DNA of 64,000 nucleotides from Escherichia coli (GTDB lineage Bacteria; Pseudomonadota; Gammaproteobacteria; Enterobacterales; Enterobacteriaceae): NCBI RefSeq assembly GCF_044324785.1, contig NZ_CP172127.1. The stretch is one strand, 5' to 3'. Every line of letters begins with the position of its first letter. The first letter of the stretch is position 1. Positions 43,682 to 46,213 of this stretch are shown here, piece after piece. The notes under the pieces were generated by a model. It saw only the letters and a program-made list of their open reading frames with translations, was not told the origin of the DNA and searched no databases. The position numbers and the translations under genes are program-made.

Positions 43682-46213
43682 ATGCCAGTCGTACCAACAG
43701 TATCCGGACGTCAGGTTGAGAGCCGTGGAGTTCAGTCAGCAGGCTTGCAGACGTTTTCTCAGCCAGGTATTGGTGATGCTTTTGTTCGGGCAGGGGCAGA
43801 GGCAATTGATGTTTTTGGTCAGGCAAAACAGCGTGCCAATATTGCCTTGATTCAGGAGGCATCCCTTAAACTCAGTCAGACAGGCAGTGATCTGCTGAAT
43901 AATCCTGAAACAGGATTGCTTAACCTGAAAGGGAAAAATGCTATTGGAAAAGGCCATGAGTATACACAGCAGTTTGATGCTCAGATCGAACAACTGGCTA
44001 TGTCGCTGCCGGATGAACAGGCTCGTAATGCTTTCATGCAGCAGGCGCAGCAGCAGCGTATTCAGTTCGCTACGCAGGCCGGGAGGTACGAGATAGGGCA
44101 AATAAATGCCTACGAAGAAGGCCAGTTTCAGGCTACGCTGCTGAACAATGGTAAAAATGCCGCAGCATTGTATGGCGACAACGCCGCATACGTATTGGCT
44201 AATAAGCAAACTTTCCAGCAAATTGAGGATTACGGTATTGCGCATGGCTGGAGCGACGAGCAAATCCAGGCCAAGAAAATCGAGTTTAAAGAAGCAACAG
44301 CAAAAGCAACTGCTCAAAATGCTATTGGAGCAAACTATCTTCAGGTAAGACAGCAAAATGGCGAGTTAAGCGATACTGCTGCTGGATCTCGCCGTGCTGT
44401 AGCAGATAGTGGCTCTTCCGATCGTACCCGCGGTATACGCAACAATAACCCCGGCAATCTTGAATACAGCAAAACTAATCCGTGGGTTGGGCAGACTGGT
44501 GATGATGGTCGCTTTGCCAAATTCGAAACCCCTGAACACGGTATTCGCGCGCTTGGTCGCAATTTGCTGTCGTATCAGCGTCAGGGTTATGACACCATCA
44601 GCGAAATAATTAATCGCTGGGCACCGGCCAGTGATGATAATAAAACTGATGCTTATATACGGGCAGTATGTGCTCAGCTCGGTGTAACTCCTGACCAGCC
44701 GCTTGACGCATCAAATCCTGACACACTGAAATCTCTGTGCAAAGCAATTATTCATCATGAGCAAGGCAGTCAGCCGTACAGTGATCAGCAATTGGCCGCT
44801 GGCGTTAGTGCCGCACTGGGGCTTTCTCAGCTACCGACAAAAAATAAACGTTATACCGGTGTAGCCTGGTTCGATGCTTTAAGTGAATCAGATCAGGCCA
44901 GCGTGTTGCGACAGACGGATGCATTAGCCAGACAGCAGCAGGCTGAATATAGAACGATGCTCGAAAGCCGGGTTCGCGATGCAACGGCTGCGTATATGCG
45001 TGGCGTTGAATTTCCTAACCCGCCTGGTGAGGGTGAGTTCATTGCTGCTTATGGTGTCAGAGAAGGAAACCTGCGATATACCGAGTTCAGAAATTTGCAG
45101 ATCGCCGGACAGTATATAGGCTCTTTCCGCAACATGCCGACAAGCAGCATTACCGCATATGTTGAGCAATTACGCCCGGATACTGGTGAGACAGGGGAGG
45201 GGTATGCGTCTCGTGCGGAGTTATTCGACCGGGTATCGGCGGCAGCCACGAAGGTAATAACCCAGAGGCAGAATAATCCGTTTAGTGCAGCGGTGGAAAT
45301 CGGAGCCTATAAGCCGATCACCAGCAACAACCCTGACGATATCACTGCCGAGGTGGCTAACCGTTTCTCGTCGCAGGAAAGCTTACGCGCGTTGGGAATT
45401 AATGCCCCACTCCTCAACAGTGAAGAGGCGGCTGCGCTGGCACAGCAGGTGCGCGGCACTCAGAACGTTGACCAGACAATTAAACTGTTGCAGAGCATGG
45501 GGGAGAAGCTGCCTGCGCCAGCAATACGGCAGGTGGCATCTGTAATTGCTCCGAACAGTGCGGCAACAGCCTATTCTGCGCTGCTGCTGGGCACGCCGGA
45601 TAACCAGTACGACAACACCAGGCCGACGATCCCATATAGTCAGTTCATCGGGTATAAGCCGACGATGAACAAGTACGACGTTGCAAAGGTTATTCTTTCC
45701 GGTGACCAACTACTGAATCCGACGAAGGCTATGAAGAATGCGGGCATAACTCCGGTACAGTTGCCGAGCGAAGATAAAATGAAGCGCGCTTTCGACGAAC
45801 AGGTTGGTAATGCATTTGCCCGTAACCCAGAGACGCGCCAGATCAGTTATAGCCTTTTCAAAGCCGCTTACGCAGGAATCGCTTATCAGTCTGGTAATGC
45901 GTCTATGACGAGCACAGATGCGGTTAACTCCGATGTGGCGGAGAAAGCTGCGCAGTACGCAACAGGCGGTGTATACAAGAGATTTAATGGTGGTGATGTT
46001 GTAATGCCTTTCGGCATGGATGAATCCACTTTCAAAGATCGCTATACCACATCAGCGAAACAAGCACTGAAAGATGCCGGACTTAACGTAAATGCAGTGT
46101 CAAACTTCACACCAGTTAATATCGGCAATAACCGGTATCGGCTGGTAAATGGTAGCGGACGCTGGGCAACAGATCCCAGAACCAATGAAGCTATTGTCGT
46201 GAGGGTTGAATAA
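43682..46213 (+). CDS. Large hypothetical protein (843 aa), cargo operon gene 1
   Basis: Strong RBS (AGGAGG) then ATG; Q/A-rich N-terminal third; central segment RNNNPGNLEYSKTNPWVGQTGDDGRFAKFETPEHGIRALGRNLLSYQRQGYDTISEIINRWAP looks like a conserved domain I cannot assign; stop overlaps the next start (TAATG). Confidence 0.6.
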   Translation: MPVVPTVSGRQVESRGVQSAGLQTFSQPGIGDAFVRAGAEAIDVFGQAKQRANIALIQEASLKLSQTGSDLLNNPETGLLNLKGKNAIGKGHEYTQQFDAQIEQLAMSLPDEQARNAFMQQAQQQRIQFATQAGRYEIGQINAYEEGQFQATLLNNGKNAAALYGDNAAYVLANKQTFQQIEDYGIAHGWSDEQIQAKKIEFKEATAKATAQNAIGANYLQVRQQNGELSDTAAGSRRAVADSGSSDRTRGIRNNNPGNLEYSKTNPWVGQTGDDGRFAKFETPEHGIRALGRNLLSYQRQGYDTISEIINRWAPASDDNKTDAYIRAVCAQLGVTPDQPLDASNPDTLKSLCKAIIHHEQGSQPYSDQQLAAGVSAALGLSQLPTKNKRYTGVAWFDALSESDQASVLRQTDALARQQQAEYRTMLESRVRDATAAYMRGVEFPNPPGEGEFIAAYGVREGNLRYTEFRNLQIAGQYIGSFRNMPTSSITAYVEQLRPDTGETGEGYASRAELFDRVSAAATKVITQRQNNPFSAAVEIGAYKPITSNNPDDITAEVANRFSSQESLRALGINAPLLNSEEAAALAQQVRGTQNVDQTIKLLQSMGEKLPAPAIRQVASVIAPNSAATAYSALLLGTPDNQYDNTRPTIPYSQFIGYKPTMNKYDVAKVILSGDQLLNPTKAMKNAGITPVQLPSEDKMKRAFDEQVGNAFARNPETRQISYSLFKAAYAGIAYQSGNASMTSTDAVNSDVAEKAAQYATGGVYKRFNGGDVVMPFGMDESTFKDRYTTSAKQALKDAGLNVNAVSNFTPVNIGNNRYRLVNGSGRWATDPRTNEAIVVRVE

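Follow-up and report, generated by a model that had tools for sequence, protein, structure and literature searches.

What is the compact segment in the middle of the large protein encoded by gene 1, and how did such a gene come to lie in a chromosomal island of Escherichia coli that has no capsid gene? The gene is located in a window of 64,000 nucleotides (nt) of the E. coli contig NZ_CP172127.1 (assembly GCF_044324785.1), by which we mean the whole stretch of DNA analysed here. An initial annotation, made from the nucleotide letters alone, had described an open reading frame (ORF) of 843 amino acids (aa) at 43682-46213 and had quoted a 77-aa peptide from it as part of an enzymatic or ligand-binding domain that could not be placed. 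Both the ORF and the peptide (aa 253-329 of gene 1, nt 44438-44668) match the sequence exactly. We consider it likely that the peptide belongs to an Enc34-type glycosidase domain, which is situated within an injection protein of the epsilon15 gp15 type and would cleave the peptidoglycan locally during DNA ejection, and that the gene now resides in an island of the kind of the phage-inducible chromosomal islands (PICIs), where it has, together with genes 2 and 3, taken the place of a capsid gene.

The central domain of gene 1

The Pfam search that had been proposed for the segment gave no match to gene 1 even at E ≤ 10, nor was there a match in NCBIfam; the identity of the domain came from a sequence search of the PDB instead. 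With phmmer, gene 1 matches 7Q47 ('Endolysin') at E 1.8e-16 over aa 248-368 and chain L of 9VVP ('Gp29') at E 4e-39, where aa 249-403 of the query align with residues 3-151 of the chain. The structure 7Q47 is the catalytic domain of ORF39, the endolysin of Hafnia phage Enc34, which its authors place in the CDD family PHA02564 (Cernooka et al. 2022, PMC8943055), and by homology to Enc34 the domain of gene 1 would belong to the same family. Structure prediction agrees with this. An AlphaFold2 model of the domain alone reached a predicted local distance difference test (pLDDT) value of 91.6, and Foldseek superimposed it on 7Q47 with a template modelling (TM) score of 0.86, a root-mean-square deviation of 1.8 Å and 37% identity, while no other PDB entry matched the domain model below E 1. 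Among the PHROG families, the full-length protein corresponds to PHROG 992 (E 4.8e-291), and its partial matches are to families labelled endolysin and 'tail injection transglycosylase'. The description of the domain as unassigned thus holds for Pfam and NCBIfam only and is otherwise mistaken, since a homologue has a crystal structure and a measured muralytic activity (7Q47, PMC8943055) and the PHROG matches are annotated. The central segment is a known, structurally characterised lysin domain that has no Pfam entry, and in this respect the result is ordinary and essentially known. RefSeq names the protein 'hypothetical' in most copies (and 'bacteriophage protein' in one) because the domain gives no match in Pfam or NCBIfam.

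The expectation that the segment is compact and conserved was borne out. Its conservation goes far beyond chance: when aa 243-375 served as query against 1.84 billion representatives of clusters (at 50% identity), 12,953 clusters matched with E ≤ 1e-3 and 6,517 with E ≤ 1e-10. The architectures among these matches comprise free-standing proteins of about 140 aa, proteins with C-terminal membrane helices, proteins of about 850-950 aa with the domain at approximately aa 240-380, and giants of more than 2,500 aa. In phages, a tblastn search with the 9VVP fragment retrieved 747 records encoding the domain. An alignment of 24 diverse homologues has invariant residues at G251, R253, N254-256, P257, N259, W268, G270, F278, F281, G287, R289, A290, A314, P315, N320 and Y325, and W313 and E360 are conserved in at least 90% of these sequences. 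In 29 full-length relatives of gene 1 (19-80% identity) all invariant columns except Met1 fall within R253-G362, E360 and Y325 among them. The quoted peptide therefore marks a real domain but covers only about its first 60% and ends at aa 329, so that the last third, including the helix with the catalytic glutamate, had been missed; the true end is at about aa 378. Many free-standing copies of about 140 aa in Pseudomonas and other genomes bear the name 'structural protein P5', which goes back to P5 of the Alteromonas phage PM2. The family is very large and has no Pfam entry.

The Enc34 domain has an all-helical fold, which is distantly similar to the alpha-lobe of lysozyme and has a large loop between alpha1 and alpha2, and it is muralytic by itself on E. 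coli, P. aeruginosa and H. alvei cells with a permeabilised outer membrane (PMC8943055). By superposition on GH73 and GH23 enzymes, Glu131 was proposed as the catalytic residue, and Tyr95 and Trp79 were supposed to position the substrate (PMC8943055). All three have identical counterparts in gene 1 (Table 1), E360 being located in the helix IIHHEQGS. Judged by this signature, the domain is very probably enzymatic, and this part of the original supposition stands. Its bond specificity is probably that of a beta-N-acetylglucosaminidase, following the argument of the Enc34 authors, who consider this activity probable for the family (PMC8943055). Enc34 ORF39 and gene 1 have in common the fold, the Trp/Tyr/Glu signature and an RNNNPGN loop. 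However, ORF39 is a 26-kDa enzyme of a lysis cassette and possesses a C-terminal membrane domain of two helices, whereas in gene 1 the domain is internal to an 843-aa protein of virion type that has no membrane anchor and no lysis genes nearby.

A different label, that of a GH23/SLT lytic transglycosylase, stems from the annotation of epsilon15 gp15. We rejected it for gene 1, as there is no SLT or GH23 match in Pfam (E ≤ 10) or NCBIfam. According to the Enc34 authors, the kinship of the family to GH23 is only remote and structural, with a permuted order of the helices (PMC8943055). The label on epsilon15 gp15 is hence not based on family membership.

Gene 1 as an injection protein

The protein encoded by gene 1 is 80% identical to gp15 of Salmonella phage epsilon15 (AAO06078, annotated as 'putative lytic transglycosylase'). 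At the nucleotide level, gene 1 shares 75-76% full-length identity with the Salmonella phages epsilon15 and E15 and the Enterobacter phage BUCT554, and within the first 1,527 nt its identity to coliphages of the phiV10 type amounts to 86-92%. It starts with ATG, is preceded by a GGAGG Shine-Dalgarno sequence 8 nt upstream and ends with TAA.

The N-terminal third had been described as rich in glutamine and alanine and probably helical, which we can confirm: aa 1-245 contain 15.1% alanine and 13.1% glutamine, and a model of the full-length protein, computed by AlphaFold2 with 29 homologues as input (mean pLDDT 81), predicts helices at aa 40-73, 90-107, 112-161, 167-187 and 192-226 with pLDDT values of about 85-94. 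In this model aa 1-43 are disordered, aa 242-250 form a linker of low confidence, aa 251-378 form the compact domain, and aa 395-760 are mostly helical and followed by a small alpha/beta domain at the C-terminus.

Gene 1 is followed by genes 2 and 3, homologues of gp16 and gp17, in the same order as in epsilon15. The stop and start codons overlap, as they do in phage late operons, with TAATG at the junctions of genes 1/2 and 2/3 and TGATG between gene 3 and the small gene 4. Neither gene 2 nor gene 3 has a match in Pfam or NCBIfam, gene 3 has none in the PDB sequence search, and a Kyte-Doolittle scan revealed no strong transmembrane helix in the products of genes 1-3. The centre of gene 2 (approximately aa 240-480) has been replaced, with 15-41% identity to epsilon15 gp16 in the corresponding bins and 66-95% in the flanks. 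A PDB match of gene 2 to a 'peptidase C39-like' protein (E 0.03) was dismissed, because the alignment contains no catalytic motif. The start of gene 3 was taken from the PGAP annotation of locus L002. A terminator-like hairpin at 51352-51369 with a T-run closes the block derived from phage. The suggestion that gene 1 might be the enzymatic head of its operon is correct insofar as it encodes the only recognisable enzyme of the three-gene block. There is, however, no enzymatic pathway with an enzyme at its head: the three genes represent the distal part of a podovirus late operon for structural injection proteins (ejectosome or tail tube), one of which contains the lysin as an inserted accessory module.

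In phages and prophages this gene follows the genes for portal, capsid and gp11-gp14, in seven of seven loci from other genera (taken from species-representative genomes; all are complete prophages and none is an island) and in nearly all of 80 IMG/VR loci. Immediately upstream of the phage gp15 gene lies one that PGAP annotates as 'virion core protein, T7 gp14 family'. The same applies to gp15 of epsilon15 and gp18 of phiV10. Both are homologous to gene 1 over the full length, and behind them come homologues of gp16 and gp17 whose start codons overlap the preceding stop codons. In the phages, however, they stand after gp11-gp14 in a complete morphogenesis operon, whereas here the upstream part is gone and the block lies in an island. 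From the full-length homology and the synteny with phage gp15-gp17 we infer that the protein is present in the virion and is released at the time of DNA ejection.

The Gp29 protein found in the PDB search belongs, according to tblastn, to Kayfunavirus coliphages and is named 'internal virion protein D / DNA ejectosome component'. Gp29 and gene 1 are both ejection proteins of short-tailed phages and share the domain with about 60% identity over 150 aa. They differ in its position, since Gp29 carries it at the extreme N-terminus of a 1295-aa protein of the gp16 type, that is, in the position of T7 gp16, and gene 1 in the middle of a protein in gp15 position; the remaining parts of the two proteins do not align. 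Such a distribution is not without precedent. The N-terminal transglycosylase of T7 gp16 breaches the murein, and lysozyme domains move between gp15-like and gp16-like ejection proteins, the domain being on the gp15-like protein in the case of gp35 of K1E and K1-5 (PMC8954989). The role of T7 gp16 and K1E/K1-5 gp35 is a similar one: both are internal proteins that carry a muralytic module and, once ejected, open the murein for the DNA conduit through the envelope (PMC8954989). However, the T7 gp16 domain is of the GH23/SLT type and that of gene 1 is of the Enc34 type and unrelated in sequence, so this is an analogy of role and not of family.

On this basis, a mechanism can be proposed. The gene 1 protein would sit inside a short-tailed phage particle of the epsilon15/phiV10 type, or be fixed to it, and, upon infection, would be extruded together with the proteins of gp16 and gp17 type to form a conduit across the periplasm. 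E360 might then serve as the general acid while Y325 and W313 hold the glycan in place, and the domain could cut a local hole into the peptidoglycan. This hole would let the conduit and the DNA pass the sacculus, which is the same job as that of the transglycosylase at the N-terminus of T7 gp16.

It is conceivable that the domain is instead part of an ordinary endolysin, which lyses the host from within at the end of the lytic cycle. The closest characterised homologue, Enc34 ORF39, is an endolysin, and several PHROG matches bear this label as well. We nevertheless regard this as highly improbable. The domain is located in the middle of 843 aa that are homologous from end to end with a virion protein, no holin or spanin was found in the element, and the same domain occurs at the N-terminus of a structurally resolved ejectosome protein. 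In addition, related intact prophages have a separate cassette of holin and endolysin; since one such prophage of E. coli carries its own holin and GH19 endolysin, the gp15 domain is to be seen as an entry enzyme and not as a lysis enzyme. Only little more probable, and still very unlikely, is a non-catalytic module that binds peptidoglycan or is purely structural. The Enc34 crystals showed no bound sugar, which would be in line with such a module, but thousands of clusters, free-standing enzymes of about 140 aa included, have the Glu/Tyr/Trp signature and the RNNNPGN loop without variation, and the Enc34 domain is muralytic by itself.

The reading as a muralytic injection protein is thus the preferred one, although several points weigh against it. 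The muralytic activity of gene 1 is deduced from homology, and so is that of the gp15 homologues. The assignment of catalytic residues in this family comes from superimposed structures and not from mutagenesis (PMC8943055), and the bond specificity is unsettled, as the related M4Lys has been reported to yield both glucosaminidase and endopeptidase products. In so far as PMC12391199 and PMC8954989 report it, the location of epsilon15 gp15 in the virion rests on Guichard 2013 and Chang 2010. In a Foldseek search with the full-length model, the T7 gp15 tunnel protein (7K5C_A) came next after 7Q47 (probability 0.94, E 0.01), but with TM scores of 0.16-0.19 the modelled resemblance of gene 1 to T7 gp15 is weak. 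Finally, genes of the gp14 family and for capsid, portal and tail are all absent beside gene 1. The order gp14-gp15-gp16, which is intact in all phage and prophage relatives examined, is broken here, the gp14-family gene being reduced to a 3' remnant of approximately 68 nt. As gene 1 lacks its normal neighbours, its protein can reach a virion in this setting only if a helper phage supplies the particle.

The island and the arrival of the injection genes

The element, an unusual setting that the initial annotation had not noticed, is inserted between actS/glyU and the ETT2 type III secretion island. Its left attachment site (attL, 33544-33562) lies at the 3' end of tRNA-Gly(CCC) (33488-33561) and its right one (attR) at 52689-52707, the repeat being TTCCCTTCGCCCGCTCCAA. 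Besides the genes listed in Table 1, it encodes regulators of the Rha, AntA/B and BRO types, an Icd-like protein, a DUF4222 protein and a PerC pseudogene; the injection genes 1-3 are followed by two small ORFs and then by an origin-like array. The element has the marks of the PICI type, namely an integrase with att repeats and an AlpA-like regulator, a primase and the origin-like array, and it has no full set of virion or packaging genes. No gene for capsid, portal, terminase, tail or gp14 was found in it, neither by PHROG nor by annotation. At the nucleotide level, phage records resemble the element only within 43671-51413, the 3' end of which covers the 'putative integral membrane protein' of phiV10 and the terminator.

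Table 1. Coordinates of the element, its genes and the features of gene 1 within the window
Feature	Position	Strand	Basis or remark
Gene 1, epsilon15 gp15 homologue (virion injection / tunnel-type protein)	43682..46213	+	843 aa, lysin domain embedded
N-terminal Q/A-rich helical region, aa 40-226	43799..44359	+	composition, AlphaFold2 model
Enc34-type (PHA02564) lysozyme-like peptidoglycan hydrolase domain (putative), aa 248-378	44423..44815	+	PDB matches, AlphaFold2, Foldseek, conservation
W313, equivalent of Enc34 Trp79 (substrate positioning)	44618..44620	+	7Q47 alignment, codon checked
Y325, equivalent of Enc34 Tyr95	44654..44656	+	7Q47 alignment, codon checked
E360, equivalent of Enc34 Glu131, proposed catalytic	44759..44761	+	7Q47 alignment, codon checked
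C-terminal mostly helical region, aa 379-843	44816..46210	+	AlphaFold2 model
Gene 2, epsilon15 gp16 homologue, 686 aa	46213..48273	+	PHROG 1145, E 1.9e-136; 61% aa identity
Gene 3, epsilon15 gp17 homologue, 918 aa	48273..51029	+	PHROG 684 'virion structural protein', E 1.1e-294; 89% aa identity
Gene 4, small membrane-protein ORF, 104 aa, with rho-independent terminator	51029..51379	+	one hydrophobic segment
Satellite 'late' upstream region (terminator tail and 68-aa ORF 43379-43585)	43264..43610	+	PHROG 4934 (68-aa ORF)
Recombination scar, 20-codon chimeric ORF MNRWYSIKAEGRQCYLTQVL and stop	43585..43647	+	alignments to the PC-NDM34 island and a prophage junction
Integrative PICI-like element, 19,164 bp	33544..52707	+	perfect 19-bp direct repeat at both ends
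P4-type integrase	33687-34940		
AlpA-like regulator	36094-36291		PHROGs 66 and 2790, E ~1e-11
DUF927 primase	39323-41449		PHROG 1139, E 4e-174
Single-stranded DNA-binding protein (SSB)	41660-42082		
ProQ/FinO protein	42119-42616		
Putative replication origin	52046..52201	.	three TTTGCGGGTTAT iterons spaced 21 bp apart, separated by an AT-rich spacer from three copies in inverted orientation

The iteron array would serve as the replication origin. The inverted iteron copies are followed by an AT-rich palindrome, and the region is 98% conserved in a variant of the element that is integrated between yicC and dinD. With the PICIs and the capsid-forming PICIs the element shares the P4-type integrase at a tRNA gene, the AlpA-like regulator, the primase, the iteron repeats, the size of about 19 kb and the lack of a full morphogenesis set, but it differs from them in having three genes for podovirus injection proteins in place of genes for a capsid or for the redirection of packaging.

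How the injection genes arrived can be read from the sequence upstream of gene 1. The late region of the satellite (347 nt) is 88% identical to positions 14766-15112 of an island of approximately 11 kb in strain PC-NDM34 (L013), where it lies directly upstream of a fusion gene for a ClpP-like prohead protease and major capsid protein. The order in that island is int, a helix-turn-helix gene, Icd-like, DUF4222, primase, SSB, the capsid fusion gene and DUF1441, so that the element shares both the backbone and the 'late' upstream region with an island bearing the capsid fusion gene and DUF1441. In the element, the first approximately nine codons of the capsid fusion gene (ATGAATCGCTGGTAC... at 43585) make up the 5' part of the chimeric scar ORF. 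Its 3' part consists of the last approximately 68 nt of a phage gp14-family gene, with 68 of 69 nt from 43614 onward identical to the gp14/gp15 junction of the MINF_9A prophage. Since the late region and the initial capsid-gene codons are thus fused to the tail of a gp14 gene, the injection block has replaced the capsid module of a satellite-type island. In the stretch from the terminator at 43252-43273 to gene 1, a scan for the sigma-70 consensus revealed no convincing promoter.

Gene 1 itself is a mosaic. Up to about aa 525, including the lysin domain, it is at least 95% identical to gp15 of a phiV10-like prophage and for the rest only about 27%, while beyond this point (45255 onward) it is 80-100% identical to epsilon15 gp15 in bins of 60 aa. 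Compared to the phiV10 type, gene 2 reaches only 31% identity and gene 3 only 26%. The breakpoint hence lies within gene 1, with the phiV10 type before it and the epsilon15 type from there on through genes 2 and 3. These comparisons suggest that the gp15 C-terminus varies together with gp16 and gp17.

Maintenance of the block and its possible use

At least 27 complete E. coli genomes contain 80% or more of the element's full length. The fragment spanning the junction between backbone and gene 1 is found (≥80%) in 43 complete E. coli genomes, compared to 48 for gene 1 (≥80%). In locus L003 (E. coli ExPEC XM, between yicC and dinD), and also in L016, the same cargo of regulators, primase, gp15-gp17 and origin region is combined with a different integrase. 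Since the same cargo occurs with a different integrase at a different site, the element is modular and has moved. In gene 1 the ratio of nonsynonymous to synonymous substitutions (dN/dS) between copies of the element is 0.16-0.20, in gene 2 it is 0.05 and in gene 3 it is 0.13-0.21, and these values indicate that the gp15-gp17 block is under purifying selection.

Five of the 80 IMG/VR loci represent this same element, and three (L049, L050 and L089) form a second, divergent lineage. The backbone proteins of the latter are 60-84% identical and gp15, gp16 and gp17 are 74%, 54% and 87% identical (aa level). The catalytic signature is intact, and dN against the element is 0.08-0.27 at saturated dS. 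No capsid, portal or gp11-gp14 genes were found in these three loci. As to its host, they contain no tRNA and no informative flank, and the lineage is not among the complete E. coli genomes. Compared to the integrated copies, the metagenomic contig L049 (19,241 bp) is circularly permuted, and its last approximately 45 nt repeat the first ones with two mismatches, which suggests a circular or concatemeric form. This permuted contig is the sole, and an indirect, hint at a putative helper-driven induction, replication and packaging of the element.

What might an island gain from three injection genes? Known satellites steal or remodel capsids, or they build capsids of their own and steal tails. 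We tentatively propose, as a possibility short of an even chance, that the island is an active satellite of an undescribed kind, in which the capsid on a PICI backbone has been swapped for gp15-gp17 and a helper of the Uetakevirus type provides capsid, portal, gp14 and tail. Gene 1 would be the adaptor, its N-terminus of helper type with the lysin domain being linked to a C-terminus of foreign origin, which fits the equally foreign gp16 and gp17. The satellite particles could thereby gain a different apparatus for DNA entry, for instance one that gets past superinfection exclusion in cells already carrying the helper. Our search of the literature, which was incomplete in coverage, found no description of satellites with genes for injection or internal virion proteins, and this is absence of evidence only.

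It may also be that the three genes are dead cargo, a decayed fragment of an epsilon15/phiV10-type prophage which came to lie beside an integrase and has no current function. Genes for capsid, portal, terminase, tail and gp14 are missing from the element, and the truncated 3' end of gp14 and the chimeric scar ORF bear witness to illegitimate recombination. A blastn search (word size 9) of the rest of a phiV10-type prophage against the element found no shared pac- or cos-like similarity outside the block. Moreover, six of the eight element-bearing genomes listed have no second gp15-like copy, and no resident Uetakevirus was detected in them. All this would fit decay, but at least 43 complete E. 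coli genomes have genes 1-3 with every reading frame intact, the dN/dS between copies is only about 0.05-0.2, the att repeats are perfect, and the same cargo is found with two integrases at two sites (tRNA-Gly and yicC-dinD). The block is also placed exactly behind the satellite's own late-region control sequences, and a second satellite lineage has the same three genes, one of its contigs assembling as a circle or concatemer. Decay without function is therefore improbable in our view. To the same extent we doubt that the set is mainly an anti-phage weapon, with the N-terminus that matches the helper being built into helper virions and spoiling them. Interference with helper assembly is known from satellites such as the PICIs and P4 and speaks for this idea, as does the mosaic nature of gene 1, whose aa 1 to about 525 are at least 95% identical to a gp15 of phiV10 type while its C-terminus, gp16 and gp17 are only 26-31% identical to that type. 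However, the satellite would need to travel in the very same particles, and the C-terminus of epsilon15 type forms with gp16 and gp17 a coherent set under purifying selection, which suggests a working unit. PADLOC found no match in genes 1-3 and the unknown small ORFs, and there is therefore no support for a reading as a defence system.

The domain in gene 1 adds a further virion-associated member to a lysin family that is very large, and by itself it changes little. If the adaptor reading proved true, a satellite that brings along only the proteins for DNA injection would represent a new division of labour between satellite and helper, and the element would give a handle on the role of injection proteins in the entry into immune or excluded cells. 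With at least 43 complete E. coli genomes and two alternative integrases, it is common enough for direct testing.

Some further ORFs of the window deserve mention. In the 138-aa ORF at 42597-43013, residues 7-66 are 54% identical to a P1-type PacA fragment annotated as 'Pac1' in Punavirus. There is a weak PHROG match to 'terminase' as well, and Pfam gave nothing usable; the ORF may have a packaging-related or DNA-binding function of the island. The 396-aa ORF at 37581-38771 is probably not a gene. Only its C-terminal approximately 45 residues match the family of Icd-like cell-division inhibitors, and RefSeq has a gene of about 68 aa and a YlcI/YnfO gene on the opposite strand in this place. 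The 267-aa ORF just after the integrase (35063-35866) has no match in PHROG, NCBIfam or PADLOC, and the variant between yicC and dinD has a different gene in its place, so that this position may be a slot for variable cargo. Beyond attR, ETT2 extends over 52897-63417 with an InvF-like regulator, the SctC secretin, an InvE-type gatekeeper, SctV and the SctN ATPase, and it appears intact here, compared to a copy disrupted by IS1 in strain STEC388.

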